64,000 nt of DNA from Eubacteriales bacterium (GTDB lineage Bacteria > Bacillota > Clostridia > Oscillospirales > CAG-272): positions 45,085 through 109,084 of the forward strand of contig JAZNCE010000120.1 in NCBI GenBank assembly GCA_045587385.1. The letters run 5' to 3'. Shown here one piece after another: positions 10,000 to 51,609 of this stretch. Each line of letters starts with the position of its first letter. Position 1 is the first letter of the stretch. The position numbers and the translations under genes are program-made. The notes under the pieces are model-generated. The model was not told the origin of the DNA. It was given only the letters and a program-made list of their open reading frames with translations, and made no database searches.

Positions 10000-10102
10000 T
10001 TTAAGTCAGCCTTCTTCCTGTAATTTATTGATAATATTATAACAAACCATGCAAAGAATGTCAATGCGAAACGCGATATTTTGCGTTTTTTTATGCGAGG
10101 TC

Positions 10103-33216: not shown

Positions 33217-33217
33217 T

Positions 33218-34657: not shown

Positions 34658-34665
34658 CAAAAAAT

Positions 34666-34699
34666 GACGGCGAAGGCTTTTTAGCCTTCGCCGTTTTTC
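34666..34699. terminator. bidirectional rho-independent terminator
   Basis: Stem GACGGCGAAGGC / GCCTTCGCCGT followed by TTTTTC. Confidence 0.75.
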
Positions 34700-34700
34700 T

Positions 34701-35669
34701 TTATTTGGTTACGTTTTCGGGATTCCCTTGGCTTCTGTATGCTGCAAGCACGAGTCTGACGACCTTGGCAGCCTCTGCTCCGTCGATTGCAAAGTGTCTT
34801 CCCGTAGCTGCGCAGTCATAAAAATCTGCGATCAGTGCGCCATGGCCGGAGCCGTAGCATGCTTTTCCAAGCGCCAATGCTCCCTCCTCGTAGTGCTCGT
34901 GGCGGTTGCCGTACAAAACGTCCTTGGGCATGATCTTGAGCCATTCCCCGTCCGCACGTACGGTCAGCTCGACCGGGCAATCGGTTGCACCGCCGTTGGT
35001 CGCATAGAAGGTAAAGCCCTGATTGGGCTTGCCTGCTAAGATCACGGCTGTATCCTCAACCTCAATATCCTCTGACAGAGTCATGCAGGAAACACTAGCG
35101 CAAAGCTTCTCCGGCATGCCGACAAACCATTGCACCAGATCCAGCGTGTGCAACGCTTGATTGATCAGCACCCCACCGCCCTCGGTCTCCCATTTTCCTC
35201 TCCATGCGCCGGAAGCATAATATGCAGCATCTCTGTACCACGTCACACTAGCGGTCGCACAGAGGCTTTTTTTGCCCTCCAAATAGGACTTGACGGCAAG
35301 ATTGGCTGCATTGTATCTGTTTTGCAGACATACGCCCAGCTGAGCCTTGCTGTTTTTTTCAGCCTCCAGGATGCGAGGGATATCTTCTTCTCTGATACAC
35401 AGAGGCTTTTCGCAAAGCACGTTGATTCCCCGCTCCAAAGCAGCGATGATCATGTCGGCATGCAGGTAATGCGGTGTGCAGATATGTACCACGTCGATCT
35501 GCTCGCGTTCCAGCATCTCCACGTAATCCGTATAATGATGTTGCCCCGGAGCATTGCGCAAGGCGGTTTCATTGACGTCACACACCGCTACGATCTCATG
35601 CCCCTGACTATGAAGCACCTGCTCATGCAGCTTGGCTATATTACCGTAACCGATTATGGCAGATCTCAT
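34701..35669 (-). CDS. Gfo/Idh/MocA-family oxidoreductase
   Basis: Start moved to the ATG at 35669 (AAGGAG upstream): MRSAIIGYGNIAKLH..., with EKP motif CEKPLC. Confidence 0.8.
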   Translation of the reverse strand: MRSAIIGYGNIAKLHEQVLHSQGHEIVAVCDVNETALRNAPGQHHYTDYVEMLEREQIDVVHICTPHYLHADMIIAALERGINVLCEKPLCIREEDIPRILEAEKNSKAQLGVCLQNRYNAANLAVKSYLEGKKSLCATASVTWYRDAAYYASGAWRGKWETEGGGVLINQALHTLDLVQWFVGMPEKLCASVSCMTLSEDIEVEDTAVILAGKPNQGFTFYATNGGATDCPVELTVRADGEWLKIMPKDVLYGNRHEHYEEGALALGKACYGSGHGALIADFYDCAATGRHFAIDGAEAAKVVRLVLAAYRSQGNPENVTK

Positions 35670-35679
35670 AAAATTCTCC

Positions 35680-36858
35680 TTATTTAGAGCCAAACGTGCC
35701 TGCGGTATCTGCAATTGCACCGTCTTCGCAGGTCTTTTTCTTGGAAGTTGCTACGTGCTGCTCAAGCTCACGCAGATATCTGTCCTCATCAACAGGCAGC
35801 ATAATGGGCTCACCGTTGTTCCAACCCGAAAGCTCCATAGCGTTCATCAGCTCAACGCCGTTGATGCCCTCTTTACCGTCAACAAACAAGGGCTCTTCAC
35901 CGCGAATTGCTGCGATAAAGTTGTTGATTATACCCATGTGCTGGGGGTTCTCACCATCTGTCTCAACCTCGGTCAAGGTGCACTTAGGAGGAACGAAACC
36001 GATTGTTGCAGTCTTAGACCACTCCTGAGAGTCCTGCTCGTTCTGCCAATAGTACAGCTTATTGTTCTCTACCAGCAGCTTACCCTTGGTGCCCGAGATC
36101 TCAAAGCGGTTGGTACCGGGAGCTTCACCCGTGGTAGTGATAAACATGCCCGTTGCACCGTTCTTATAGCGGAAATATGCGGTTACGTCATCCTCTACTT
36201 CAATATCGTGCCACTTACCGTACTGGCAGAAGCCGTTGACCTGCACGGGCAGCTCGCCAACTACCCACTGTACAAGGTCGATCTGGTGGGGGCACTGATT
36301 GAACAGAACGCCACCGCCTTCGCCTTCCCACGTCGCTCTCCAGCTACCGCTATCGTAATACTGCTGGGTGCGGTACCAGTCGGTAATGATCCAAGTCACT
36401 CTCTGCAGCTCCCCAATGCCGCCTGCCTGCACGATCTCGCGCATTTTGCGGTATACACAGTTGGTACGCTGATTGAACATCATGGCAAACAGCGCGTTCG
36501 ACTGCTTGGCAACCTCATTCATCTCCTTGACCTGCTTAGTATAGACGCCTGCGGGCTTATCGCAGATGACGTGAATGCCGCGCTTGAGCGCTTCTATTAC
36601 CATTTCAGGGTGGAAATAGTGCGGAACAACGACCATGACCATATCGCAAAGACCGCTGTCCAGCATGTCGATGTAATTATCAAAATATGCGATGTCCTGA
36701 CCCACGGTTCTTGCTTTCATAGCCTCAATCTTGACGGGATTGTTATCGCAAAGTGCGGTGACCACACCGTTCGGAATCTTGCCGGGAATGAACAGCCCCG
36801 CCATATAGTGCGTGCCCTGATTACCAAGACCAATAATACCAACTCTTACCTTTTCCAT
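35680..36858 (-). CDS. Gfo/Idh/MocA-family oxidoreductase (long form)
   Basis: 392 aa: MEKVRVGIIGLGNQG, CDKPAG. Confidence 0.8.
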   Translation of the reverse strand: MEKVRVGIIGLGNQGTHYMAGLFIPGKIPNGVVTALCDNNPVKIEAMKARTVGQDIAYFDNYIDMLDSGLCDMVMVVVPHYFHPEMVIEALKRGIHVICDKPAGVYTKQVKEMNEVAKQSNALFAMMFNQRTNCVYRKMREIVQAGGIGELQRVTWIITDWYRTQQYYDSGSWRATWEGEGGGVLFNQCPHQIDLVQWVVGELPVQVNGFCQYGKWHDIEVEDDVTAYFRYKNGATGMFITTTGEAPGTNRFEISGTKGKLLVENNKLYYWQNEQDSQEWSKTATIGFVPPKCTLTEVETDGENPQHMGIINNFIAAIRGEEPLFVDGKEGINGVELMNAMELSGWNNGEPIMLPVDEDRYLRELEQHVATSKKKTCEDGAIADTAGTFGSK

Positions 36859-36871
36859 GTCTGTGTCCTCC

Positions 36872-37642
36872 TTAAAGGTTTGCTTTGATGTATTTGATGC
36901 TGCGTCCGACCTGCTCCATGGTGTCGGGCAGCGTTGCTGCGTTGTCCTGCTCTACAAGGAAATACTGCGCGCCTGCGGCTCTCATGCGAGGCAGCAGCGA
37001 AGTAAAGTCAATGTTACCGTCGCCAACGGGTGCAAAGACGGGGGTAAATCCACCGGGATTTTCGGGAGTATTGGTGATCATGTAGTCCTTTAAGTGGACA
37101 CAACAGATTCTTCCCTTCAATCTGTCAATCGTTGCGCCGACGTCCACGCCGCCGTACTGCAGCCAGTAGGTATCCAGCGTGTAGTTGATGTAGGGTGCAT
37201 TCTCAATGATGTAATCAAACACAGTCTGTCCGCCGTGCTTGAAGAATTCAAAATGGTGATGGTGATAGAAGAAGGAGAAGCCGTTTTGCTGCATGACCTC
37301 ACCAGCTTTATTGAGCTGCTCGATCATCTGCTTGCATCTGCTCTCATCAGCAATCGCATCTGGCGGCATAGCACCAAGACCGATGTTTTTGCAACCGAAC
37401 TTCGCGTGCTCCTCCATGAGTGCCTGCGTATCGTTTACAATGCGATCCATGGGCACGTGGGTCAGCACCACGGGTAAGCCCGATTGTGCACTGACGCGCG
37501 CGATTCTATCCGCATCAAAAGCACCGCCCGAATACTGGATATAGGAGTATCCCATCTCCTTAAGTGCCAAAGCAGCCTCTAAAAAATGCTCCTCGGTATC
37601 CAGATAATTACGGATGGAATACAAATTAAGTCCCGCTTGCAT
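36872..37642 (-). CDS. sugar phosphate isomerase/epimerase (xylose-isomerase-like TIM barrel)
   Basis: The start is uncertain (TTG at 37651 in the track, ATG at 37642). TIM-barrel family pattern: YHHHHFEF, VHLKD, LVEQD. Confidence 0.7.
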   Translation of the reverse strand: MQAGLNLYSIRNYLDTEEHFLEAALALKEMGYSYIQYSGGAFDADRIARVSAQSGLPVVLTHVPMDRIVNDTQALMEEHAKFGCKNIGLGAMPPDAIADESRCKQMIEQLNKAGEVMQQNGFSFFYHHHHFEFFKHGGQTVFDYIIENAPYINYTLDTYWLQYGGVDVGATIDRLKGRICCVHLKDYMITNTPENPGGFTPVFAPVGDGNIDFTSLLPRMRAAGAQYFLVEQDNAATLPDTMEQVGRSIKYIKANL

Positions 37643-38495
37643 CTTTCTCAAATCCCTCCTTGGTCTGCACGTAGCCGTTTTGCAGCAGCAGCTCTTTCAA
37701 GGCTGCGACAGCAGCGTCAAACGCCTGATCATTGTTCTCAAACGTAAACTTGTTTTTCATTTCACTTGCATCGATCTGGGCATATCCCGCAAACACGCGC
37801 AAGTGAGGTTCCAGCGTCAGTACCGCGTCCGCGTTCGGATCGATCATGGCGATCAGTTGCCCGATCCTGCCGTCACCGTGTCCTGCAGGCACGATCTCGC
37901 CTGTTTTCGCTATCACGTCCTTGACGTGAAAATAGTTGGTGTGTGCGTGCATAGCCTCCAGCGTTTGTGCGGAATCCTGACCGCATTGCAGATAGTTGGC
38001 AGGATCATACACGTGGGCAAGCCCCGGCACGTTTTGCTTGATCAGCTGCACGCGCTCCAAAGTGTCGCCTAAAATGTCCTTTTCGTTTTCATGGCACAGC
38101 AGCACGCCGAATTTTTCAGCCGTCTCCACCATGCGTTTCAGATAATCATATACTTTCTCGGGCTGATCATACGCGCCGAAAAAGCTGAACATACGGATTC
38201 TCTTGCAGCCGAATACGTTTGCAAGCTCGCAAACGTGCGCCACGGTTTGCAGATACTCCTCAATATCCACGGTAATATCCACTTTCCCAAGTGGCGAACC
38301 GATCGACCAGACCTCAATACCTGCAGCATCCAGCTCCGCCTTGATCTGCGCAGCCTCATCAAGCGTCAGATCCTTGACGTTTTTACCGTTTACCGAACGC
38401 AGCTCGGTCAAAGCAATATCATTTCTCGTCATTGCGGCAATCTGCCCTTGCAAAGAAGCAGATGCTTCATCCGAAAATGCACAAAGTCTTATCAT
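37626..38495 (-). CDS. sugar phosphate isomerase/epimerase (xylose-isomerase-like TIM barrel)
   Basis: Start moved to the ATG at 38495 (MIRLCAFSDEAS). Motifs: CHENEKD, FHVKD, TLEPH. Confidence 0.7.
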   Translation of the reverse strand: MIRLCAFSDEASASLQGQIAAMTRNDIALTELRSVNGKNVKDLTLDEAAQIKAELDAAGIEVWSIGSPLGKVDITVDIEEYLQTVAHVCELANVFGCKRIRMFSFFGAYDQPEKVYDYLKRMVETAEKFGVLLCHENEKDILGDTLERVQLIKQNVPGLAHVYDPANYLQCGQDSAQTLEAMHAHTNYFHVKDVIAKTGEIVPAGHGDGRIGQLIAMIDPNADAVLTLEPHLRVFAGYAQIDASEMKNKFTFENNDQAFDAAVAALKELLLQNGYVQTKEGFEKDASGT

Positions 38496-38569
38496 AGTGT
38501 CCCTTTCTTGTAATCCCAACGATTTCTAAGAAAAAATCGCCCTATAATTTGCAAATCCCATTGCTTTTT

Positions 38570-38598
38570 TTGCAATAATATTGTACAATATATATAAA
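38570..38598 (+). promoter_or_regulatory. sigma-70 promoter for the uxaC operon (TTGCAA-17-TATAAA)
   Basis: -35 at 38570-38575, 17-nt spacer, -10 at 38593-38598. The spacer contains the palindrome at 38578-38591. Confidence 0.55.
38578..38591. promoter_or_regulatory. perfect 14-bp palindrome ATATTGTACAATAT, candidate GntR-type operator
   Basis: The sequence is its own reverse complement. The TTGTACAA core fits the generic GntR-family (n)GT(n)AC(n) half-site logic. It lies inside both divergent promoters. Confidence 0.5.
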
Positions 38599-38608
38599 GC
38601 TCTGTCAA
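38580..38608 (-). promoter_or_regulatory. sigma-70 promoter for the TIM-barrel/oxidoreductase operon (TTGACA-17-TACAAT)
   Basis: On the minus strand, -35 TTGACA is at 38608-38603, the spacer is 17 nt, and -10 TACAAT is at 38585-38580. Confidence 0.55.
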
Positions 38609-38654
38609 GAGCATGTGCAAAACTATTTTTATTTTTTACAAACAGAGGTACTAC

Positions 38655-40049
38655 ATGAAGCAATTTATGGACCGCGACTTTTTGCTCGGAAGTGATACTG
38701 CAAAGACGCTTTATCACGATTACGCAGCACAACTTCCCTTGGTAGATTACCATTGTCACATTGATCCGCGCGAGATCTATGAGAATAGGCAATTTGAAAA
38801 TATCACGCAGATCTGGCTGGGCGGAGATCATTACAAGTGGCGCATTATGCGCTCGAACGGTGTGCCCGAGGAATACATTACAGGCAATGCTCCCGACCGC
38901 GAAAAATTCCAGAAATTCGCCGAAACACTTCCGCGCTGCGTGGGCAATCCCATGTACCATTGGTGCCATCTTGAGCTCAAGACCTATTTCGGCTACGAGG
39001 GCGTGCTGAACGGAGAAACGGCACAAGAGGTCTGGGATCTGTGCAACGAAAAGCTCAAGGTCATGCGTGCGCGTGATTTCATAGCGCAGAGCAAGGTTGC
39101 CATGATCGGCACGACCGACGATCCCTGCAGCGATCTTGCCTATCACGCGCTGATCGCAAACGAGGGACTTGACTGCAAGGTTTGCCCCAGCTTCCGTCCC
39201 GACCCTGCGCTCAATATGCACAAGCCCGGCTTTGCAGCATACATCGAAAAGCTTGGCAAGACCGCAGGCATGGAGATCAGGACCGTAGCCGACGTCAAAG
39301 CTGCGCTTTCTGCAAGAATGGATCATTTTGCAGCACACGGTTGCCGCGCAAGTGACCACGGACTTGATTATATCATGTATCGCGAAGCAAGCGAGAAAGA
39401 GATCAACGCATCCCTGGCAACGGCACTTGCGGGCGGCACGGTAACCAAGGAACAGACCGAAGCATATCAGACCGCGCTGCTGCTCTTCTGCGGACGCGAA
39501 TATGCGCGCCGCGGTTGGGTCATGCAGCTGCACTTCTCCTGCATGCGTAACCCCAACAGCCGCAGATTTGCCGAGCTTGGTCCCGACACCGGCTTTGACT
39601 GCATTGCCGTGACCGATAGCTGCGCACCGCTGTACAGACTCATGGACGCATGGGACAAGGACGGACAGCTGCCGCGCACAGTGCTTTACAGCCTCAACCC
39701 CGCTGATAACCAATGGATCGACACGCTGCTGGGTGCTTTCCAGGATAGCTCGATCCCCGGCAAGGTACAGCATGGCAGCGCATGGTGGTTCAACGATAAC
39801 AAGGTGGGCATGCAGGATCAGCTGACCAGCCTTGCCAACCTTGGCATTCTCGGCAACTTTATCGGCATGCTGACCGACTCGCGCTCCTTCCTCAGCTATA
39901 CAAGACACGAGTACTTCCGCCGCATTCTCTGCAATCTGATCGGCACGTGGATTGAAAACGGCGAGTATCCCTGCGATATTCCCGCGGTAGGTGCACTCGT
40001 ACAAGATATCTGTTACTACAACGCAGCCCGTTATTTTGGACTTGAATAA
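38655..40049 (+). CDS. uxaC: glucuronate isomerase
   Basis: Start moved to the ATG at 38655: MKQFMDRDFLLGSDTAKTLYHDYAAQLPLVDYHCHIDPREI...GDHYKWR. Confidence 0.95.
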   Translation: MKQFMDRDFLLGSDTAKTLYHDYAAQLPLVDYHCHIDPREIYENRQFENITQIWLGGDHYKWRIMRSNGVPEEYITGNAPDREKFQKFAETLPRCVGNPMYHWCHLELKTYFGYEGVLNGETAQEVWDLCNEKLKVMRARDFIAQSKVAMIGTTDDPCSDLAYHALIANEGLDCKVCPSFRPDPALNMHKPGFAAYIEKLGKTAGMEIRTVADVKAALSARMDHFAAHGCRASDHGLDYIMYREASEKEINASLATALAGGTVTKEQTEAYQTALLLFCGREYARRGWVMQLHFSCMRNPNSRRFAELGPDTGFDCIAVTDSCAPLYRLMDAWDKDGQLPRTVLYSLNPADNQWIDTLLGAFQDSSIPGKVQHGSAWWFNDNKVGMQDQLTSLANLGILGNFIGMLTDSRSFLSYTRHEYFRRILCNLIGTWIENGEYPCDIPAVGALVQDICYYNAARYFGLE

Positions 40050-40063
40050 AGGAGATTTCCCCT

Positions 40064-41146
40064 ATGCAAATGACGTTTCGCTGGTACGGCGAGGGCAACG
40101 ATAAGATCAGCCTTTCCGATATCAAACAAATTCCCGGTGTGACGGGAATCGTTTGGGCATTGCATGATAAAATGCCCGGTGAGGTTTGGCAGCCCGAAGA
40201 AATTGCCAAGGTCAAAGAGCAGCTTGACGCTTACGGCTTTAACATGGACGTGGTGGAGTCGGTCAACGTGCACGACGACATTAAGATCGGTCTTCCCTCC
40301 CGTGACGCTTACATTGAAAACTACAAGCAGACCATTCGCAATCTTGCCCCCTTTGGCGTCAAGGTCATCTGCTACAACTTCATGCCCATTTTCGACTGGA
40401 CCAGATCCAATCTGTTCCACCCCGTAGGCGACGGCTCGACCGCGCTGTTCTATGAAAAGAATATGATCCAGGACGATTACAACGCCATGGCAAAGTACAT
40501 TCTGGATTTCACCGAGAAATACAACATGTCCTTCCCCGGTTGGGAACCCGAGCGTATGGCAAAGCTGGATCAGCTGTTCAAGGCATACGCTGACGTGGAC
40601 CACGAAAAGCTGTGGGCAAACCTCAAGTATTTCCTGGAAGCACTTATGCCCGTATGCGAGGAGACCGGCATCAAAATGGCGATCCACATGGACGATCCGC
40701 CTTGGGACATTTTCGGTCTGCCCAGACTTCTGGTGGATGAGCCCTCGATCGACCGTTTCCTTTCTATGGTCGATCACCCCTGCAACTGCCTGACGCTTTG
40801 CTCGGGCAGCCTGAACGCAAACCCCGATACCAACGTAGCCACCATTGTGCGCAAGCATTGCGACCGTATTGCGTTTGCCCATATCCGTAACGTCAAGCAC
40901 TTCGAGAACGGTGACTTCTCCGAGGCTTCCCACCGCGACTGCGACGGTGACACGGGTATTCTGGATATTCTGAAGGCTTACCACGATTGCGGCTTTGACG
41001 GCTATATCCGCCCCGACCACGGCAGACATTTGTGGGGAGAGGGTCCCGGTACGGTACGCCCCGGTTACGGACTTTACGACCGCGCACTCGGCATTATGTA
41101 TATGCTGGGCGTTTGGGACATGCTTGATAAATTGGAGGAGAAATAA
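40064..41146 (+). CDS. uxuA: mannonate dehydratase
   Basis: 360 aa: MQMTFRWYGEGNDKISLSDIKQIPGVTGIV. Confidence 0.95.
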   Translation: MQMTFRWYGEGNDKISLSDIKQIPGVTGIVWALHDKMPGEVWQPEEIAKVKEQLDAYGFNMDVVESVNVHDDIKIGLPSRDAYIENYKQTIRNLAPFGVKVICYNFMPIFDWTRSNLFHPVGDGSTALFYEKNMIQDDYNAMAKYILDFTEKYNMSFPGWEPERMAKLDQLFKAYADVDHEKLWANLKYFLEALMPVCEETGIKMAIHMDDPPWDIFGLPRLLVDEPSIDRFLSMVDHPCNCLTLCSGSLNANPDTNVATIVRKHCDRIAFAHIRNVKHFENGDFSEASHRDCDGDTGILDILKAYHDCGFDGYIRPDHGRHLWGEGPGTVRPGYGLYDRALGIMYMLGVWDMLDKLEEK

Positions 41147-41147
41147 T

Positions 41148-41990
41148 ATGATCAACTTACCTTTGAAAATAGACTATACCGATAAGGTTGTCGTGATTAC
41201 CGGTGCCGGCGGACTGATCTGCGGCGCAATGGCACGTGCATTTGCACAGTGCGGTGCCAAGGTGGCAGCGCTTGACTTAAACCTTGATGCTGTGACCAAG
41301 CTTGCTGACGAGCTGACCGCAGAGGGCTTTATCTGCAAGGGCTACAAGGCAAACGTGCTGGATCCTGCGGCTCTTGAAGAGGTGCACGCGCAGGTTCTTG
41401 CAGACCTTGGCAAGTGCGACGTGCTTGTCAACGGAGCAGGCGGCAACAACCCCAGAGCTACCACATCCAACGAGTACCATCACGAAGCAACTCCCCAGGG
41501 TAAGTCCTTCTTTGATCTGGACGCGGACGGCGTTGACTTTGTATTCAAGCTCAACTTCCAGGGCACGCTGCTGCCCACGCAGGCGTTTGCCAAGGATATG
41601 CTGGAGACGGGCGGCTGCATTCTCAACATTTCCTCCATGAACGCATATACCCCTCTGACCAAGATCCCCGCATACTCTGCTGCAAAGGCTGGTATTTCCA
41701 ACTTCACACAATGGCTGGCAACGCACTTTGCAGGCACGAATATCCGTTGCAACGCCATCGCTCCCGGTTTCCTTGTTTCCGCACAGAATTACTCTCTGCT
41801 CTTTAATGCGGATGGCACTCCCACCGCAAGAAGCGCAAAGATTCTGAACGGTACGCCCTGCCACAGATACGTACAGGCTGAGGAGCTGCTTGGAGCTACG
41901 CTGTTCCTTTGCGACGACAAGAGCGCATCTGCCATTACGGGCGTTGTGCTTCCCATCGACTGCGGTTTTGCCGCTTATTCGGGTGTATAA
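41148..41990 (+). CDS. SDR-family oxidoreductase, probable D-mannonate/fructuronate oxidoreductase
   Basis: Start at the ATG at 41148 (MINLPLKIDYTDKVVVITGAGGLICG). It has the catalytic YSAAK. Its position is between uxuA and eda. Confidence 0.75.
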   Translation: MINLPLKIDYTDKVVVITGAGGLICGAMARAFAQCGAKVAALDLNLDAVTKLADELTAEGFICKGYKANVLDPAALEEVHAQVLADLGKCDVLVNGAGGNNPRATTSNEYHHEATPQGKSFFDLDADGVDFVFKLNFQGTLLPTQAFAKDMLETGGCILNISSMNAYTPLTKIPAYSAAKAGISNFTQWLATHFAGTNIRCNAIAPGFLVSAQNYSLLFNADGTPTARSAKILNGTPCHRYVQAEELLGATLFLCDDKSASAITGVVLPIDCGFAAYSGV

Positions 41991-42002
41991 GGAGGCTGCA
42001 CT

Positions 42003-42629
42003 ATGACCGTACTTGAAAGATTTTCCCGCGTTGGCATCGTCCCCGTGGTCGTCATTGACAAGGTGGAGGACGCTGTTCCCACTGCTAAAGCTTTGCTTGC
42101 GGGCGGCGTGGACGTGATGGAGATCACCTTCCGCACCGCTGCTGCACCCGAGGCGATCAAGGCTGTAGCCGAGGCTTGCCCCGACATGCTGGTTGGCGCA
42201 GGCACCGTGCTCAACGTAGAGCAATGCAAGCAGGCGATTGAAATGGGAGCTGCGTTCATCGTCTCCCCCGGCTTTGACCGCGACGTAGTCGCTTACTGTA
42301 TTGATAACGGCATTGCAACCACCCCCGGTTGCGTTACGCCCACCGAGATCACGGCTGCGCTCAATATGGGACTTAAGGTCATCAAGTTCTTCCCTGCCAA
42401 TATCTACGGCGGTTTGAACGCAATGAAGAACCTCTCCGCGCCCTTCGCAGGCGTCAAATTCCTGCCCACGGGCGGTATTAACACCGCAAACGTGCGCGAA
42501 TACATCGATGCTCCCTTTATCCAGGCAGTCGGCGGCTCTTGGATCTGCCCCCGTGCCGATATTGCAGCAGGCAATTTCGATAAGATCACCGCACTGTGCA
42601 AAGAAGCACGCAGCGCAGCATTCGATTGA
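42003..42629 (+). CDS. eda: 2-dehydro-3-deoxyphosphogluconate / 4-hydroxy-2-oxoglutarate aldolase
   Basis: 208 aa: GVDVMEITFRT, KFFPA, PTGG. Confidence 0.9.
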   Translation: MTVLERFSRVGIVPVVVIDKVEDAVPTAKALLAGGVDVMEITFRTAAAPEAIKAVAEACPDMLVGAGTVLNVEQCKQAIEMGAAFIVSPGFDRDVVAYCIDNGIATTPGCVTPTEITAALNMGLKVIKFFPANIYGGLNAMKNLSAPFAGVKFLPTGGINTANVREYIDAPFIQAVGGSWICPRADIAAGNFDKITALCKEARSAAFD

Positions 42630-42641
42630 TAGGAGGCTATT

Positions 42642-43670
42642 ATGGCAAAGATTATTACCTTCGGTGAGCTGATGCTCAGACTTCAGCCCTTCAATTATGA
42701 AAGATTCGTGCAGGCAAGTCAGGTGGAATTCTCCTTTGGCGGCGGTGAGGCAAACGTAGCGGTTTCTCTTGCCAACTACGGCATGGACGCAGCATTTGTC
42801 ACCAAGCTCCCTGCACACGCCATCGGTCAGGCAGCCGTCAATTCCCTGCGCAGATACGGCGTGGATACCTCCATGATCGTGCGCGGCGGTGACCGCGTGG
42901 GCATCTATTACAACGAAAAGGGTGCTTCGCAGCGCGGTTCTGTCTGCATTTATGACCGTGCAAACTCGGCAATCGCAAAGGCTGACGCTGCGGATTTTGA
43001 TTGGGACGCTATTTTTGACGGTGCGGATTGGTTCCACTTTACCGGTATTACCCCCGCGCTGGGCGAAAACGTAGCTGCGATTTGTCTGGATGCCTGCAAG
43101 GCTGCAAAGGCACGCGGCATCAAGATCTCCTGCGACCTCAACTACCGCGGCAAGCTGTGGACGCGCGCGCAGGCTCGCGAGACCATGACCAAGCTTTGCG
43201 AGTACGTGGACGTTTGCATTTCCAACGAGGAGGATGCAAAGGACGTATTCGGCATCGAGGCTGAGGCAACCGACATTTACGGCGGCACGCTCAACCACGA
43301 GGGTTACAAGTCGGTTGCAAAGCAGCTGGCTGACAAGTTCGGATTTGAGATGGTTGCTATCACGTTGCGTGAGAGCCACAGCGCAAGTGCAAACGGCTGG
43401 AGCGCAATGCTGTATAACGTAGCCGAGGATGCTTACTGCTTCTCCAAGAAGTATGAGCTGACCATCATTGACCGCGTTGGCGGCGGTGATTCGTTCGGCG
43501 GCGGCTTGATCTATGCGATCTTAAACGGCAAGAGCACCCAGGCGGCTGTTGAATTTGCAGTTGCGGCATCCGCGCTCAAGCACACCATTGGCGGTGACTA
43601 CAACATGGTCACGGTTGCCGAGGTGGAAAAGCTGGCAGGCGGCGACGGCTCGGGAAGAATTCAGAGATAA
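42642..43670 (+). CDS. kdgK: 2-dehydro-3-deoxygluconokinase (PfkB family)
   Basis: 342 aa: GGGEANVA, DRVGGGDSFGGG. Confidence 0.9.
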   Translation: MAKIITFGELMLRLQPFNYERFVQASQVEFSFGGGEANVAVSLANYGMDAAFVTKLPAHAIGQAAVNSLRRYGVDTSMIVRGGDRVGIYYNEKGASQRGSVCIYDRANSAIAKADAADFDWDAIFDGADWFHFTGITPALGENVAAICLDACKAAKARGIKISCDLNYRGKLWTRAQARETMTKLCEYVDVCISNEEDAKDVFGIEAEATDIYGGTLNHEGYKSVAKQLADKFGFEMVAITLRESHSASANGWSAMLYNVAEDAYCFSKKYELTIIDRVGGGDSFGGGLIYAILNGKSTQAAVEFAVAASALKHTIGGDYNMVTVAEVEKLAGGDGSGRIQR

Positions 43671-43720: not shown

Positions 43721-45175
43721 TTATTCGATAAGAATTCTTCCATCAGTACAGAAAACCTGAATTTGGTGATCGGTACAAAAAATGTCACCGCTCCCTACAT
43801 GCATAGTCCATTCGGCTTTTGTACCATTATAATTTATGGTACGAAGTGTACTATTGGAAAATGCCTCACTTCCAATATACACATTTGGAGATGTTATATC
43901 AAGAATCTCAATAGCGGAACTATGAAAAGCCTTTCCACCTATCGTCTGAACGTTATCTGAAAGAATGACCACGTTCAAATTTCGACATTGTGAAAATGCT
44001 GCATCACTGATCTTCCCTACATTCTTGGGAATCACAATTTTTATTAATCCGGAGCTATAAAATGCACTTGTCCCCATCGTTAAAAGACTTTCAGGCAGAT
44101 CTATCTTTTGCAAGGATGAGCAATACGAAAATGCGGAACCGCCAATCGTCAGAACATCCCCCGTAAATACGACTTTTTCCAGATATTCGTTGTAAGAACA
44201 CATTTCCTCGGGAATATGCAAGATATTGGGCGGGATTTCAATTTCCGTAATATTAGCATTCTTGAATGCGGCAATACCAATAGCTACCAAAGAGTCCGGC
44301 AAATTGATCGTTTCAAGATTCGGACACGAAAATGCATATGCGCCTATCTCGTTCAAGCCATCGGGTAATACAACCTCTTTCAGGTATTCATCGTTTTTGA
44401 AAGCATTATCCGCTATACTTTTGACGGGTATGCCCTCTATTTCTTCCGGAATAATCACGCGATATCGGAAACCGGAATCACTCTGTGATTTATTCGTGAA
44501 TCCTAAAACCACAAATAAGTCTCCACGTTCATTCAATTGATACTGTACATCCTGATCATCCACACGAATTACACCCGGTTCTAATGGAGGCAAAGCTTCT
44601 GTTTCCGATTCAAATTCAGTATCTGTTTCCGTTTCGGTATCCGTTTCTCCTATGATCGCGTCAATCTCATCCTTGTGCTTCATATAATACTCATACAATC
44701 TCTCAAGGAAATCCCCGAGATCCTGCATGCTCTCGCCCACAAAGCCATCACTTTGCATGGATTGCAGCTTATCGATGACCGAATCATCCGTACCTGCGCT
44801 GAGAGCTTTGAAGAGCTCTTCGGTAAACTTCCATTCGATCCAATTCAGCTGCAGCGCACTTTGCGCAGGTGGCGTAGGATCGTCGGGATCGTCCGGATCT
44901 GCGGGCTGCTTATCCAACGGGAACAGCACGTTCTCGATGACTTGGCTGCCCCATTCTTGCACGGGCTTGCTGCCAAGCACGATAAAGGACAGCGGCAGAG
45001 AGACAAGCAGCATGGAGAAGACCAAAGCAAGGCAGGCTGCGCTGATGAAGATGCCGCGGTTTCTCTTTCGGCGTCTTGATTTGAGAATGGACAGCTTGGT
45101 TTCGTACTGCACATACTCAATGATATACTTTTGGTCAATGGCGGAAATCGCGTCAATCATTACGTTCTTATTCAT
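43721..45175 (-). CDS. membrane-anchored putative anti-sigma factor with BspA-type leucine-rich-repeat ectodomain (pair 2)
   Basis: 484 aa with an ATGA overlap to its sigma gene. N-terminal MIDAISAIDQKYIIEY, one TM, a conserved juxtamembrane module, an acidic TETETDTEFESETE linker, then LRR units (IGAYAFS..L..I.LP.SL..IG..AF). Confidence 0.6.
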   Translation of the reverse strand: MNKNVMIDAISAIDQKYIIEYVQYETKLSILKSRRRKRNRGIFISAACLALVFSMLLVSLPLSFIVLGSKPVQEWGSQVIENVLFPLDKQPADPDDPDDPTPPAQSALQLNWIEWKFTEELFKALSAGTDDSVIDKLQSMQSDGFVGESMQDLGDFLERLYEYYMKHKDEIDAIIGETDTETETDTEFESETEALPPLEPGVIRVDDQDVQYQLNERGDLFVVLGFTNKSQSDSGFRYRVIIPEEIEGIPVKSIADNAFKNDEYLKEVVLPDGLNEIGAYAFSCPNLETINLPDSLVAIGIAAFKNANITEIEIPPNILHIPEEMCSYNEYLEKVVFTGDVLTIGGSAFSYCSSLQKIDLPESLLTMGTSAFYSSGLIKIVIPKNVGKISDAAFSQCRNLNVVILSDNVQTIGGKAFHSSAIEILDITSPNVYIGSEAFSNSTLRTINYNGTKAEWTMHVGSGDIFCTDHQIQVFCTDGRILIE

Positions 45176-45747
45176 AGACCGATCCCCTCCTCTTGAAGTT
45201 TTTCGCGAAGGGTTTGCTTGATGTACGCGATCTGCTTGGAGACCTTGGAGCGACTTACGCCCATTTCGCTTGCAATGTCATCGATCGACTTGCCGAAATA
45301 GTATCTTCCAAGGAAAATATACCGCTGATCCTTATCAAGGCTTGCAATATACGATTCGATGACCGTGGCGAGCATGTGCGCATCATCCGTTTCGCGCACA
45401 TCCGCCAGCACGTCCTCCAGCTCGGAGAGTGATACGGCTTGGCTCATCGCGGCTCTTTTCTGCGCCTTTTGTCTGCGACCGACCATCAAGGACTGGTTGC
45501 GGATAATGGCAGCCAAAAAGGCTTTGAGCAGATACGGGCGTTCGGGCGGAATGGTGTTCCATGCAGCCAGATAGGTGTCGTTGAGGCACTCCTCACTGTC
45601 TTGCATATCTTTGAGAATATTGTTTGCAATTTTCAGCAAATACGCGCGGTATTTGTCGTCGGTGTGTTTGATAGCATTCTCATTGCGCGCCCAGTATAGC
45701 GCAATGATCTCATCGTCGCTCAGAATGCGGACGTAGTTCGTTTCCAT
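45172..45747 (-). CDS. sigma-70 family (ECF-like) RNA polymerase sigma factor, paralog 2
   Basis: 191 aa: LYWARNENAIKH...DSEECLNDTYLAAW, HTH IDDIASEMGVSRSKVSKQI. Confidence 0.85.
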   Translation of the reverse strand: METNYVRILSDDEIIALYWARNENAIKHTDDKYRAYLLKIANNILKDMQDSEECLNDTYLAAWNTIPPERPYLLKAFLAAIIRNQSLMVGRRQKAQKRAAMSQAVSLSELEDVLADVRETDDAHMLATVIESYIASLDKDQRYIFLGRYYFGKSIDDIASEMGVSRSKVSKQIAYIKQTLREKLQEEGIGL

Positions 45748-45839
45748 ATCATTCTCCTTTCAGCATCCTTCACCCTTATAGATGCGTTTTTTTAGAAAAA
45801 GTGTACGGTTTTGGAAAAATATTTTTTATTTTTATAAAA

Positions 45840-45863
45840 TCGGTGGGAGCAAGCCCCCACCGA
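45840..45863 (-). terminator. rho-independent terminator after the fucosidase gene
   Basis: Stem TCGGTGGG / CCCACCGA, with a T-run on the minus strand (TTTTATAAAA). Confidence 0.6.
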
Positions 45864-45871
45864 AATCGATA

Positions 45872-46840
45872 TTATTCCTCTCTCTTGCCAACCTCGCGCA
45901 GAATTTCAAGCGCAGGCACGGGAATTCTGCCAAGATGGTCGGGTCCTACGTTCAGCAGGTAGTTGACGCCGCGGGCGTTGAGATGATTCTTGATGCGAAT
46001 GACCTCGTCTGCATTCTTCCAGTTATCGTCAAAATACTTAAAGCCCCAGGTATCGTTGAGCGTAGTGGGAGATTCCACCAGTATGTCCTCCATATATTCG
46101 TCGGGAATGACGTTGTCGCCCATGGAAACGTAGTCGCCAAGTCCGTTGCCTATGCGGGAATTCAGCAGGCATTCGGGCTGCAGCTCTTTGACAAGATCGC
46201 GCAATTCCTTGGATTGCTCGGGCGTGATCTGAAAAGGCGTATCACACCAAAGCAGGCAAATATCACCGTACTTGGTCAAAATCTCACGGATCTGCGGCAG
46301 GATCTTTGCGCGGAAGCATTGCTCATAATTCTTATGATCATCGTCCGGGAAATCCCAGTTGTTGGTCCAATGCGTGTCGTCAATATTCAGGTGCGAGGGA
46401 TGATAACCGCCGCCGTTGGGCTCATGCCAGTCAAGCTCCTGAGAATAATACAAACCCAGCTTAAGCCCATGCTTTTTGCAAGCCGCTGCGATCTCACCGA
46501 TCACGTCTCTGCCAAAGGGCGTTGCGTCTACCACGTTGTAGTTGTCGTACTCGGATTTGAACATGCAAAAGCCGTCGTGGTGCTTACTGGTCACGACCAT
46601 GTAATTCATGCCCGCATCCTTGGCAAGCTTTACCCATTCTTCCGCATCAAAGTAAATGGGGTTGAACGCCTTTGCAAGCTGCGCATATTCCTCGTTCGGA
46701 ATACGGAAATACGCCTGCGCCCATTCTGCGATCATACCAATGCGCTTTCCGCGGTGCTCCCCTGCCAGCAGCGAATACAGACCCCAGTGGATCATCAAAC
46801 CGAATTTGGCCTCTTTTTTGAACCATTCCTTATTGGTCAT
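45872..46840 (-). CDS. alpha-L-fucosidase (GH29 catalytic domain only, no signal peptide)
   Basis: 322 aa: FGLMIHWGLYS, VVTSKHHDGFCMF, LGLYYS. Confidence 0.85.
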   Translation of the reverse strand: MTNKEWFKKEAKFGLMIHWGLYSLLAGEHRGKRIGMIAEWAQAYFRIPNEEYAQLAKAFNPIYFDAEEWVKLAKDAGMNYMVVTSKHHDGFCMFKSEYDNYNVVDATPFGRDVIGEIAAACKKHGLKLGLYYSQELDWHEPNGGGYHPSHLNIDDTHWTNNWDFPDDDHKNYEQCFRAKILPQIREILTKYGDICLLWCDTPFQITPEQSKELRDLVKELQPECLLNSRIGNGLGDYVSMGDNVIPDEYMEDILVESPTTLNDTWGFKYFDDNWKNADEVIRIKNHLNARGVNYLLNVGPDHLGRIPVPALEILREVGKREE

Positions 46841-46844
46841 TGCC

Positions 46845-47423
46845 TTATTCTCCTATCTTTCCGTTGTATGTAAAGAATTTTGTGTTGTACACGTATGCAA
46901 CCTCTGCGTTGCCCAAGCGTCTGACGATATAGAATTTATCGCCGCGCAGCGAGGTATTCTCCAGCCCCTTGGGCGAGATATACATCTCCTTGCTCCAGGC
47001 GTACAGCTTATCAGTCTCGGGCACGCGCCACGTGGCGTTTTGAAACACAAAGACCGTAACGGTTTTGGTATAATGCGTATGCCTTCTGCCAAAGCTACCG
47101 GCGGTATGCGGCTCGTATACAGTTTCGGTGGTAATGTGCGAGAGCGTGTCGATCTCCACGAGCAGCTCACCGTCATGCTGCACCTCAAAGATCACATCCT
47201 GATCTTCCCTGTTTTGCTTGACGTACAGATAAATGGGAATAATGGCAAGCAGTCCAACCGCGATGCCAAGCAACACGTGTACCAAAACGCCCGCCAAGAT
47301 CGCCGCAACCCCAATGGGTATGATCCACACGAGCGTTTTATCGTCGTTTGCATCTGCCTTTTTGACCTCGTTACCAAGCACGTCCTGCCTGATGATCTCG
47401 TCTGTCAATATTTCTTTGGTCAT
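46845..47423 (-). CDS. 2-TM membrane protein, tandem paralog P1 (unknown family)
   Basis: 192 aa with an AAGGAG RBS. It has a charged N-terminus, two TM helices and a roughly 110-aa C-terminal domain ending AYVYNTKFFTYNG. Confidence 0.6.
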   Translation of the reverse strand: MTKEILTDEIIRQDVLGNEVKKADANDDKTLVWIIPIGVAAILAGVLVHVLLGIAVGLLAIIPIYLYVKQNREDQDVIFEVQHDGELLVEIDTLSHITTETVYEPHTAGSFGRRHTHYTKTVTVFVFQNATWRVPETDKLYAWSKEMYISPKGLENTSLRGDKFYIVRRLGNAEVAYVYNTKFFTYNGKIGE

Positions 47424-47429
47424 ATCGTT

Positions 47430-48014
47430 TTACTCCTTATATGTAAAGAACTTTTCGCTGTACAGATCCACGACCGTTTGCGGATCGTTTTTCATTGTCA
47501 CAATAATATAGGTGTCCCCGTATTCGGACATCTGCAGCCAGACCGATAATCTTGACGGGCAGCTCGAACCGTTTCTCTTATCGTGATAAATGCGATATTC
47601 CTTGCCCTCTTCAAAGGTGACCACATCATAGCCGTGATCCATCAAGGAATGCCACGGGTCAAACTCCACGAAGCTTAAAAACTTGGCGCGCTCGATGACG
47701 ACCTGTCCGCCGTCCTTATTTTTGACCGCGCGGATCAACATGACCGTTTTATATATCAGATATGCGCATACCGCTGCCAGCGCAAGCAGGACAACGCCGC
47801 AAAACGCCATAAAACCCACCGCTTGATCTGCGGGCTCTTTTGCAAGCTCTTTGAACAACCGGGATGCAAAGATCGCAAACACGATTGCCGTGATCACGCC
47901 TGCCGCACCGTATATCGGGAAATAGAAATACGCGCCGCGGTTGAATTTTTTGAGCAGCATTTCCCTTGTAATGACTTCTCTTCTGTCTTCTTGCACGTTA
48001 TCCCTCCGTGTCAT
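47430..48014 (-). CDS. 2-TM membrane protein, tandem paralog P2 (unknown family)
   Basis: I prefer the ATG at 48014 over the TTG at 48017 used in the track. It has the same architecture as P1 and a C-terminus VDLYSEKFFTYKE. Confidence 0.55.
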   Translation of the reverse strand: MTRRDNVQEDRREVITREMLLKKFNRGAYFYFPIYGAAGVITAIVFAIFASRLFKELAKEPADQAVGFMAFCGVVLLALAAVCAYLIYKTVMLIRAVKNKDGGQVVIERAKFLSFVEFDPWHSLMDHGYDVVTFEEGKEYRIYHDKRNGSSCPSRLSVWLQMSEYGDTYIIVTMKNDPQTVVDLYSEKFFTYKE

Positions 48015-48570
48015 CAACGTATTCGTACAAAGCCTCGGGATAGATCATCTGCAGCTCCCAGCTCTTTTTCTGATAAATCACCAAAATAAAGGATGCCCCC
48101 ACACCGAATTTGTCGCGTGCACGGTTTTTCTCGGACTCTGTCCACAGCCCCTCTTTCATGGTAAAGGTGTTTCCTCGCGCAAATTCAAACACGTCGTATT
48201 CGATTTCTTTTAACGTGTGCGTGCGGTGGCTGTAATAGGTTTCCACGCACTTGCGCACTTCGGTCAGCGTGTCAATCATCACGGTGACGTCGCCCTGCGT
48301 AACGCTGTGCTTCTTTTGATGCATGTCAAAGATCAACTTGACGCCGCCAATGAGCAAAATGGGAATAGCGGCGCATGGAATAATACCAAAAAGAAAGCCA
48401 AGCAAAAGATTGACCTCGCGCCATATCCAATTTGCCGCAAGCAGCATCACCAAAAACGGCACACACGCGCCAAAAGCCGCGAATATCATCATCTGAAATT
48501 TGTCGGTCGCGCGCTCGGTTATGGTTCGCACTATATCAGATCTTTTCAGTATCTTTCTCTGCTCTGTCAT
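47998..48570 (-). CDS. 2-TM membrane protein, tandem paralog P3 (unknown family)
   Basis: Start moved to the ATG at 48570 (AAGGAGA 5 nt upstream; MTEQRKILK). It has the same architecture. The IDTLTE motif matches IDTLSH in P1. Confidence 0.55.
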   Translation of the reverse strand: MTEQRKILKRSDIVRTITERATDKFQMMIFAAFGACVPFLVMLLAANWIWREVNLLLGFLFGIIPCAAIPILLIGGVKLIFDMHQKKHSVTQGDVTVMIDTLTEVRKCVETYYSHRTHTLKEIEYDVFEFARGNTFTMKEGLWTESEKNRARDKFGVGASFILVIYQKKSWELQMIYPEALYEYVDDTEG

Positions 48571-48603
48571 ACGCTTCTCCTTGCTTTGACAATCATTATA
48601 CAC

Positions 48604-48632
48604 ATTATACCAAATACAAGCGCAAATGTCAA
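48604..48632 (-). promoter_or_regulatory. consensus sigma-70 promoter (TTGACA-17-TATAAT) for the P3-P2-P1-fucosidase operon
   Basis: On the minus strand, -35 is at 48632-48627, the spacer is 17 nt, and -10 is at 48609-48604. Confidence 0.65.
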
Positions 48633-48640
48633 CAAATCGC

Positions 48641-48678
48641 AACAAAAAGAGATGCCCCGACGGAAATTCCGTCGGGGC
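48641..48678 (-). terminator. rho-independent terminator after anti-sigma 3
   Basis: Stem GCCCCGACGG / CCGTCGGGGC, followed on the minus strand by ATCTCTTTTTGTT. Confidence 0.75.
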
Positions 48679-48691
48679 TTGCGTATGTCGT

Positions 48692-51024
<2,333 letters not shown>

Positions 51025-51028
<4 letters not shown>

Positions 51029-51609
51029 ACCGTGTAGCCCTCCTTTTCCAGTGCACTTTTCAAGGAAGTCCTGATGTAGGCAACGTCTGCATTGACAGTA
51101 GAGCGGGCAACGCCAAGCACCTGCGCGATCTCGTCAAGAGGTTGCGCATCGTAATAACGGGCAAAGAATACGTATCTCTTTCGTTCGTCCAGCGTGCGCA
51201 GCCATGCGCTGATCACCTCGGCAAGCTGCGCTGCATCACTTTCGGTGTAATCATCGCCATCCTCAAGGGCATATCCCTGCAGATCCTCAAAGGATGCAAC
51301 AAAGCATGGCGGTATGCTCTTTTTGCGGTGCTTTTGACGGTAACGGTCAATTGCCTGATTACGCATGATGCTGCCAACAAATGCTTGCAGCACGCGCGGA
51401 CGTTTGGGCGGAATGGCATTCCACGTGTCTAAATAGGTATCGTTGAGGCATTCCTCACTGTCCTGCATATCCTGCAGGATATTATATGCTGTTTTGAGCA
51501 GATAGCTGCGATATTTGATGTCCGTATGCTTGATCGCGGCTTCATCCCGCGCCCAATACAGCTCAATGATCGCTTCATCGCTGAGCATATAGCTGTTTTC
51601 TTGCTTCAT
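51025..51609 (-). CDS. sigma-70 family (ECF-like) RNA polymerase sigma factor, paralog 3
   Basis: 194 aa: LYWARDEAAIKH...DSEECLNDTYLDTW, HTH LDEIAQVLGVARSTVNADV. Confidence 0.85.

Follow-up and report, generated by a model that had tools for sequence, protein, structure and literature searches.

We analysed a 64,000-nucleotide (nt) stretch of contig JAZNCE010000120.1 from a Eubacteriales bacterium (assembly GCA_045587385.1, positions 45,085 to 109,084), hereafter called the window, whose own coordinates are used below. Its minus strand carries a self-contained four-gene operon in which three tandem genes for small membrane proteins, P3, P2 and P1, precede a gene for an alpha-L-fucosidase of glycoside hydrolase family 29 (GH29). 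By profile comparison, P1, P2 and P3 are diverged paralogs of one unnamed and previously undescribed protein family. P1 and the fucosidase gene form a stable module with a variable number of added paralogs, and this association is specific to one clade of related bacteria. Our tentative proposal is that its members act as binding or adaptor modules tethered to the membrane and facing the cytoplasm, and that P1 may have been recruited to work with the fucosidase in this clade.

A compact operon with a consensus promoter

The operon is bounded on both sides by terminator-like hairpins. Its features, in the order of transcription and with lengths in amino acids (aa), are as follows.

48654..48678, minus strand: terminator-like hairpin at the 5' boundary of the operon, an 11-bp stem with 9 GC pairs followed by a T run
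48604..48632, minus strand: promoter of the sigma-70/SigA type, with TTGACA at 48632-48627, a 17-nt spacer, TATAAT at 48609-48604 and a TG before the -10 box
47998..48570, minus strand: P3, 190 aa, ribosome-binding site (RBS) AAGGAG at 48582-48577; a divergent paralog with transmembrane (TM) helices at about residues 27-47 and 53-77
47430..47996, minus strand: P2, 188 aa from a GTG at 47996, RBS GGAGGG at 48007-48002; the most divergent paralog, with TM helices at about residues 24-46 and 59-88
46845..47423, minus strand: P1, 192 aa; the canonical member with all family motifs, directly upstream of the GH29 gene
45872..46840, minus strand: GH29, 322 aa; AlfC-type alpha-L-fucosidase consisting of the catalytic domain only
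45840..45863, minus strand: terminator-like hairpin at the 3' end of the operon, after the GH29 gene and followed by TTTTAT

The promoter matches the consensus at 12 of 12 positions and is the sole perfect match between positions 45000 and 49500. It leaves a 5' untranslated region of about 26 nt, and no Rfam family, be it an RNA leader or a riboswitch, was found in the whole window. Loci related to this one in other metagenome-assembled genomes (MAGs) are labelled L001-L039. A TTGACA or TTGACT box followed by 17 nt and TATAAT heads the unit in nine of these related loci, irrespective of which paralog comes first. The hairpin upstream of the promoter (read as 48678-48654), which closes the preceding unit of sigma-factor and leucine-rich repeat (LRR) genes behind the LRR gene, is also kept in L003 and L005-L009. 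We also observed that the -10 hexamer is present twice at 48593-48609 (TATAATgtgTATAAT), the second TATAAT lying 5 nt downstream of the first. Related loci mostly retain the first, perfect copy alone (TATAATgtgTGTAAT or similar).

The genes are packed tightly enough for coupled translation. The RBS of P1, AAGGAG, overlaps the stop codon of P2, and the GH29 RBS, AGGAG, lies within the end of P1, as the initial annotation had noted. The three tandem open reading frames (ORFs), their joining with the GH29 gene into one unit and the TTGACA-17-TATAAT promoter were likewise borne out. The start of P2 needs correction, having been placed inside the end of P3. The P3 stop codon TAA occupies 48000-47998, and a GTG at 47996 follows one base later, 5 nt past the GGAGGG. 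Since all nine database homologs of P2 are 183-188 aa long, and the entire P2 ORF of L007 measures 188 aa, P2 most likely starts at this GTG and does not overlap P3.

P1, P2 and P3 are paralogs of one undescribed family

We determined how the three proteins are related by aligning sets of orthologs (P1, n = 31 proteins; P2, n = 9; P3, n = 15; alignments A1-A3) and by building a family profile (A4) from 54 diverse members seeded by P1. Direct pairwise similarity is weak but real: BLASTP E-values among P1, P2 and P3 are 0.009-0.056 in collinear alignments, and the similarity includes the motifs that the initial annotation had quoted. Comparison of profiles gave stronger matches. The P1 and P3 families aligned over 155 columns (probability 86%, E = 5e-6), the P1 and P2 families over the C-terminal 61 columns (E = 4.6e-4), and the P2 and P3 families collinearly at E = 0.059. 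With the 54-member profile, hhalign matched the P3 family over its full length (probability 96.9%, E = 1.5e-10, 181 columns) and the P2 family over the C-terminal 109 columns only (probability 96.1%, E = 3.7e-9). These profile matches identify the three proteins as true paralogs of one family or superfamily.

The family is large. An exhaustive profile search with the P1 alignment against 1.84 billion cluster representatives (clusters at 50% identity) returned at least 500 of them at E ≤ 1e-3, of which 245 reach E ≤ 1e-10. Their length is almost always 180-210 aa, with alignments running from end to end. Wherever a source is named, the entry is a 'hypothetical protein' of a Clostridia MAG. The family shares an N-terminal KExLT..I..D followed by LSHI..E..YEP, WR.P, HY.WS, GL.NTS, GD.FY and Y.YN.K.F; the conserved motifs of the C-terminal beta domain are polar and aromatic. 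P1 has the whole set, in the form MxKExLT..I..D, LSHI..E..YEPH, WR.P, YAWSK, GLENTS, GD.FY and Y.YN.KFF. P2 and P3 lack the canonical motifs and keep remnants of them, namely IDTLTE..E.YY.H, GD.YI.V and LYSEKFF.Y or IYPEALYEY. Because only such remnants are left, we regard P2 and P3 as divergent offshoots. In terms of its motifs P1 is the canonical member, while P2 and P3, together with a further paralog, P4, in some relatives, are degenerate lineage-specific duplicates.

The initial annotation could assign no family, and our searches bear this out. Scans of P1-P3 with Pfam, NCBIfam, PADLOC and PHROG yielded noise-level matches caused by the hydrophobic segments, with nothing better than E = 0.03 among the PADLOC and PHROG models. 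No Pfam family is shared by the 54 diverse members, and a sequence search of the PDB with the family profile found nothing below E = 0.28. The family of P1-P3 is thus unnamed and previously undescribed.

A membrane hairpin carrying a predicted beta domain

In hydropathy profiles of P1-P3, a segment of about 38-60 residues is hydrophobic and divides into two helices, whose connecting loop has 12-16 residues in P2 and is very short in the other two proteins. Lysine and arginine cluster on either side of the hairpin, and few are found in the loop. An AlphaFold2 model of P1 made from 20 close sequences reached a predicted local distance difference test score (pLDDT) of 74 and had no Foldseek matches, while one made from the 54-member alignment reached pLDDT 91.9 and a predicted TM-score (pTM) of 0.85. 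The latter model has a strand at residues 4-6, helices at 8-47 and 50-83, and a C-terminal domain with strands at 87-103, 119-127, 131-133, 163-169, 175-180 and 184-186 and one short helix. The two helices extend past their hydrophobic core, the middle 38 or so residues, as a charged stalk, and the N-terminal strand is placed on the same side as the beta domain.

Hydropathy and model thus agree with the layout first described for these proteins, a charged N-terminus, two TM helices and a beta-rich C-terminal domain of about 110 aa. The distribution of lysine and arginine and the position of the modelled strand also fit the prediction that both termini are cytoplasmic, and such an N-in/C-in topology is the most probable one. 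The predicted external exposure of each protein would be very small.

Searching the model of the P1 family with Foldseek against the PDB and the viral structure database BFVD returned nothing at E ≤ 1e-3. The PDB matches of highest probability are DUF2500 structures (3Q6C, 3RD4 and 2L0C; E = 0.24-0.67, probability 0.47-0.69), whose TM-scores of 0.48-0.55 are normalised to the target and come from a search with the whole model. Next come barrels resembling the oligonucleotide/oligosaccharide-binding (OB) fold from RuvBL, proteasomal ATPases and CTC1. The best BFVD match is a 'putative membrane protein' of Acinetobacter phage ME3 (E = 0.014, probability 0.97), and a Pandoravirus DUF3592 protein was matched at E = 0.75. 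These weak resemblances suggest that the C-terminal domain may be a small beta barrel, possibly OB-like, on a membrane-anchored stalk.

The fucosidase is of the cytoplasmic AlfC type

The identity of the fourth gene product as GH29 was confirmed by a match to Pfam PF01120 (Alpha_L_fucos) at 2.9e-69. Its sequence aligns to residues 4-332 of the 345-aa Lacticaseibacillus casei AlfC (PDB 6O18; E = 6.3e-124) and is also close to a Bifidobacterium asteroides enzyme. It has neither a signal peptide nor a C-terminal beta-sandwich domain. AlfC is a tetrameric, single-domain enzyme without the usual C-terminal domain, with D200 as the nucleophile and with E39, R229, D242, N243, E274 and W283 as essential residues (PMC7718225). 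All seven of these residues are conserved in the window enzyme, where E274 corresponds to E256 and W283 to W265. By homology, the window GH29 is an AlfC-type cytoplasmic enzyme with intact catalytic residues, and its match to AlfC over the whole length points to alpha-1,6 specificity for fucosyl-N-acetylglucosamine, with or without asparagine (Fuc-GlcNAc(-Asn)).

In L. casei, alfC is co-transcribed with alfH, which encodes a permease of the major facilitator superfamily (MFS); AlfH imports 6'-fucosyl-GlcNAc-Asn, and AlfC removes the fucose inside the cell (PMC6960285). The initial annotation had called the pairing of membrane proteins with a signal-less GH29 unexpected. Since the enzyme is of the cytoplasmic AlfC type, the lack of a signal is not surprising, and alfC itself, the gene of a characterised cytoplasmic single-domain enzyme, is co-transcribed with, and dependent on, a membrane-protein gene.

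The P1-fucosidase module is stable within one clade

To survey the family we searched one genome per species with a 20-member P1-family alignment, which gave 36 loci. All lie in MAGs labelled Clostridia, Eubacteriales, Oscillospiraceae, Acutalibacteraceae, Lachnospiraceae or Candidatus Flemingiibacterium, mostly from the gut of yak, sheep, roe deer and cattle. So far, the family is known only from uncultured animal-gut Clostridia. No relatives were found in IMG/VR viral contigs, and a phage origin was rejected on this ground.

The number of paralogs varies from one to four. Most distant species have one. Among GH29-linked operons, the smallest is that of L009, which consists of the promoter, P1 and GH29 only. 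Several loci have two paralogs, sometimes with another gene in between (L001, L023, L024 and L035), and in L002, L010, L011 and L013 the two are P4 and P1. Three paralogs are found in the window, L003, L005, L006, L008 and L014, and four in L007. The order P3-P2-P1 is common to the window, L003, L005, L006 and L008, while in L014 a 619-aa gene stands between P2 and P3. P1 is the sole paralog that is always present in GH29-linked operons. P4 (about 193-197 aa) lies upstream of P1 in place of P3 and P2 in L002 (5423-6004), L010, L011 and L013 (about 9417-10004). In L007 it is found at 9411-10004 in addition to P3 and P2, which makes four tandem paralogs.

In each of the 14 loci where P1 identity is about 60% or higher, the P1 ortholog is immediately followed by a GH29 gene. 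The junction between the two measures 4-14 nt, with the RBS inside P1. The flanks of these operons differ: an asparaginyl-tRNA synthetase (AsnRS) gene and pairs of extracytoplasmic function (ECF) sigma and LRR genes in the window, L003 and L005-L008, and rnf, ApbE and TMEM164-like genes in L002, L010, L011 and L013. P1 and GH29 thus form a stable module of this lineage, with extra paralogs added in varying number. The association is a property of the clade and not of the family. The question raised by the initial annotation, whether the family always occurs in tandem multiples and next to GH29, is answered in the negative on both counts.

We also clustered the genes around family members in 40 loci and scanned 20 putatively operonic neighbours against Pfam. 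This survey revealed no recurrent partner outside the GH29 clade. A TMEM164/YwaF-like membrane-protein gene (PF14808, 2.9e-19) is found directly upstream of the family gene or genes in L002 (4563-5336), L010, L011, L013, L014 and L039 (5740-6510). The cases are few; they include the distant and otherwise unrelated L039 besides loci of the rnf/ApbE context, and the gene may be a recurrent neighbour. Other small membrane proteins whose soluble domain is beta-rich, with a TM-beta-TM layout or with two TM helices and a beta domain, are encoded beside distant members in L032 (2068-2622) and L025 (4698-5240); these have no Pfam match and no detectable similarity to the family. In two loci, the family gene itself is split into two overlapping ORFs (L037, 902-1545, 145 and 78 aa; L039, 6578-7167, 69 and 168 aa), which are either frameshifted pseudogenes or MAG assembly errors.

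Purifying selection and mosaic divergence

Selection was estimated as the ratio of nonsynonymous to synonymous substitution rates (dN/dS, Nei-Gojobori) against orthologs from up to 13 related MAG loci. The ratio is 0.07-0.19 for P1, 0.11-0.23 for P2 and 0.11-0.25 for P3. These low values point to purifying selection on all three ORFs, whose absence had been named as grounds for rejecting them. Together with conservation across hundreds of clusters, they rule out that P1-P3 are not genes.

The operon has not diverged evenly. We compared the window with the syntenic loci L003, L005, L006 and L008, in which the GH29 protein is 98% identical, with a proportion of synonymous differences (pS) of 0.25-0.37. 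P2 is 86-95% identical at the amino-acid level, and the AsnRS gene shows 91-96% nucleotide identity. P1, on the other hand, has an amino-acid identity of 73-76% and a pS of 0.70-0.80, which is near saturation, and the first 90 codons of P3 have 61-71% and 0.56-0.64. Taken together, GH29, P2 and AsnRS have 91-96% identity and a pS of 0.14-0.37, as opposed to 62-78% nucleotide identity and a pS of 0.56-0.80 in P1 and the N-terminal part of P3. In 60-nt windows against L005, identity is 95% up to the P1 start codon, where it drops to 62-68%, and is back at 95-100% from the GH29 start; P3 shows 93-100% in its beta domain but falls to 72-78% in the part that comprises N-terminus and hairpin. The diverged segments are 46845-47423 and 48300-48570. 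Their breakpoints are sharp and fall at gene or domain borders, and dN/dS is low throughout.

This pattern of substitutions suggests that P1 and the N-terminal half of P3 were replaced by old divergent alleles through recombination, and argues against relaxed constraint. Chimerism of the MAG is a residual alternative source of the mosaic, against which it speaks that the same pattern appears in comparisons with five independent MAGs.

A possible role as a membrane-tethered adaptor

The proposal that we favour is that the P family acts as a membrane-tethered, cytoplasm-facing binding or adaptor module. By analogy with NfeD proteins, a membrane anchor bearing an OB-like barrel would engage the product of the neighbouring gene. 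In the GH29 clade, P1 would have come to cooperate with the AlfC-like enzyme on the inner face of the membrane, for instance by keeping this soluble tetramer close to the point at which core-fucosylated glycopeptides are imported. On this view the additional paralogs would be interchangeable options and not fixed subunits of a single complex. We assign a probability of about 0.3-0.4 to this proposal, that is, to a binding or adaptor module with a P1-fucosidase partnership and with P2 and P3 as optional variants. In its favour, the unit of promoter, one to four paralogs and GH29 is kept while the flanks differ. A more elaborate version, in which the barrel domain of the tethered proteins docks a soluble enzyme at the membrane (here the AlfC-type fucosidase) and recombining P1-P4 alleles tune the membrane partner or transporter, would make the array a modular 'metabolon anchor' with divergent allele classes in gut populations; we consider it a long shot.

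Several points weigh against the adaptor proposal. GH29 is found within 10 kb in none of the 25 more distant loci, where the operonic neighbours are mutually unrelated: radical S-adenosylmethionine protein, methyladenine glycosylase, M20 peptidase, GH28, flavin mononucleotide (FMN) reductase, MiaA, GT87, PTH2 and a thioesterase (4HBT), besides DUF3784 and a GtrA-like protein. Because of both observations, the ancestral role of the family is independent of GH29. Since the MAGs with the 14 GH29-linked loci are related, simple inheritance accounts for part of the linkage, and the evidence for a physical or functional link between P1 and the fucosidase is indirect. Fold assignment of the beta domain is weak, as no PDB or BFVD structure matched at E ≤ 1e-3, and the topology is a prediction from models and residue distribution. 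The analogy with NfeD did not hold up as membership; it says how such a module might work, not what it is. No SPFH/Band_7 (stomatin/flotillin) gene turned up among the scanned genes of the window and the neighbours in related loci.

Incidental co-transcription is the strongest rival, which we hold to be possible. Under this explanation, the P proteins have a general membrane function independent of GH29, shared with the single-copy canonical members of other Clostridia, and the fucosidase gene just happens to be last in an operon with strong expression. It would account for a family that is usually single-copy, whose neighbours are heterogeneous and often housekeeping genes, and whose GH29-linked loci, with the enzyme missing from every distant locus, all come from one group of related MAGs. 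It does less well with the P1-GH29 junction and the shared promoter, which persist although the flanks were rearranged several times and the number of paralogs changed, down to the minimal unit of L009, and with the very divergent P1 alleles, whether replaced or kept, that still abut a nearly identical GH29. The initial annotation had instead envisaged a hetero-oligomeric membrane complex of P1, P2 and P3. As an obligate complex, with all subunits needed together, this is improbable. The tight packing of the genes, the P3-P2-P1 order shared by five operons including that of the window, and purifying selection on all three would suit it. Related operons nevertheless do with P1 alone (L009), with P4 and P1 (L002, L010, L011 and L013) or with four paralogs (L007), one carries the 619-aa insertion (L014), distant species mostly have a single copy, and the divergence histories of P1, P2 and P3 are discordant.

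Tandem diverged paralogs in one to four copies, the sharply bounded mosaic (pS of 0.56-0.80 in P1 and the first 90 codons of P3 against 0.25-0.37 in GH29) and the hypervariability of the flanking LRR genes could also be taken as signs of conflict. The P proteins would then be diversifying membrane paralogs that confer immunity against a membrane-acting toxin or phage, and the array and its allele swapping would reflect diversifying or frequency-dependent selection. We find this unlikely: no toxin, secretion-system, integrase or defence gene is nearby, the PADLOC, PHROG and IMG/VR searches were all negative, distant members lie among housekeeping genes, dN/dS of 0.07-0.25 gives no sign of positive selection, and the proteins are predicted to expose hardly anything outside the cell. 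Least probable of all is a channel or uptake device of small subunits, in which oligomers of the hairpin admit 6'-fucosylated substrates in place of the MFS permease AlfH. The P genes do occupy the position upstream of the alfC-like gene that the permease gene has in L. casei, and no other transporter gene is adjacent. Against this, the hairpins have almost no external loop and no similarity to transporter families, most of the family occurs without any glycosidase, and our searches showed no precedent for sugar uptake by such proteins.

Surroundings of the operon

Two ECF-type sigma genes flank the operon on the minus strand (48692-51609 and 43721-45747). Both overlap the gene that follows them, whose product is a membrane protein resembling an anti-sigma factor: its N-terminal region is conserved, and an acidic linker and LRR_5 repeats of the BspA type come next. 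Between related MAGs, the LRR parts vary strongly or can be aligned only in part (coverage 21-100%, identity 73-98%). A link of the operon to these ECF sigma/LRR anti-sigma pairs was ruled out, because the operon has its own SigA-type promoter and occurs without them in L009 and in the rnf/ApbE context.

The region 31861-43670 encodes TrkA/TrkH, two GFO/IDH/MocA oxidoreductases, two xylose-isomerase-like TIM barrel proteins and, on the plus strand, a hexuronate cluster (UxaC-UxuA-(short-chain dehydrogenase)-Eda-KdgK). It contains no genes for a fucose or GlcNAc-Asn pathway, and no sugar transporter or fucosyl-GlcNAc-Asn pathway gene stands beside the operon. Long ORFs lie antisense to GH29 (45782-46873, plus strand, 363 aa), KdgK (41277-43379, minus strand, 700 aa) and P1 (46656-47549, plus strand, 297 aa). 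They are most likely spurious, as they overlap well-supported genes.

Significance

The enzyme described here is known. The membrane proteins are an undescribed family beside a cytoplasmic glycosidase, and nothing so far overturns expectation. If the adaptor proposal is true, it would give a first functional handle on a family of at least 500 clusters at 50% identity that is absent from Pfam and NCBIfam. This handle would be the constant partnership with an understood type of enzyme, one that removes core alpha-1,6-fucose from host N-glycan fragments, and it would exemplify how a soluble glycosidase can be arranged at the membrane where no permease gene is dedicated to it. Should the link prove incidental, what is left is a new domain-of-unknown-function family with a lineage-specific tandem expansion, which is useful for annotation and otherwise ordinary. 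The sharp mosaic of alleles, set in an operon that is conserved elsewhere, also offers material for work on recombination and balancing selection among MAG populations of the gut.

Comparison with known systems

Several known families combine a membrane anchor with a small beta domain. DUF2500 (PF10694; Escherichia coli YhhM) is alike in having such a domain on a membrane anchor and in that its function is likewise not known. YhhM differs in being 119 aa long with one N-terminal hydrophobic segment, and has no hairpin, stalk or N-terminal strand. At the sequence level we rejected membership in DUF2500, as Pfam gave no match at E ≤ 1 for P1-P3 or at E ≤ 0.01 for the 54 members and hhalign of the family profile against YhhM gave a probability of 0.2%.

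In DUF3592 proteins (PF12158), the beta domain is located between two TM helices, whereas both helices of the P family precede it. Membership was rejected here too, given no Pfam match for P1-P3 or the 54 members, and the sole link is the Foldseek match to a viral protein at E = 0.75. DUF3592 and phage membrane proteins have been described as membrane-anchored small beta domains of unknown function (PMC12482557).

For proteins of the bPH_2 type (YdbS/YdbT), which combine a TM hairpin with a pleckstrin homology (PH) domain, there was no Pfam match, and the model ends in beta strands with no C-terminal helix. The order of parts in the P family is the same as in short NfeD proteins (PF01957; for example Bacillus subtilis YuaF), in which N-terminal membrane helices are followed by a cytoplasmic OB-like barrel and whose genes share an operon with that of a presumed binding partner. 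This likeness is an analogy and not membership, as neither P1-P3 nor the 54 members match NfeD in Pfam and no NfeD structure is among the top 50 Foldseek matches.

The closest parallel to the operon as a whole is alfHC of L. casei. As with alfC, the GH29 gene is distal in the operon and follows one or more genes for membrane proteins. The proximal genes are different: in the window they encode three two-helix-hairpin proteins with no transporter match in Pfam or NCBIfam, and not an MFS permease. Equivalents of alfR2, asnA2 and sugK are also absent near the window operon. A signal-less GH29 behind membrane-protein genes is thus a known arrangement, and it is the kind of membrane protein that sets this operon apart.

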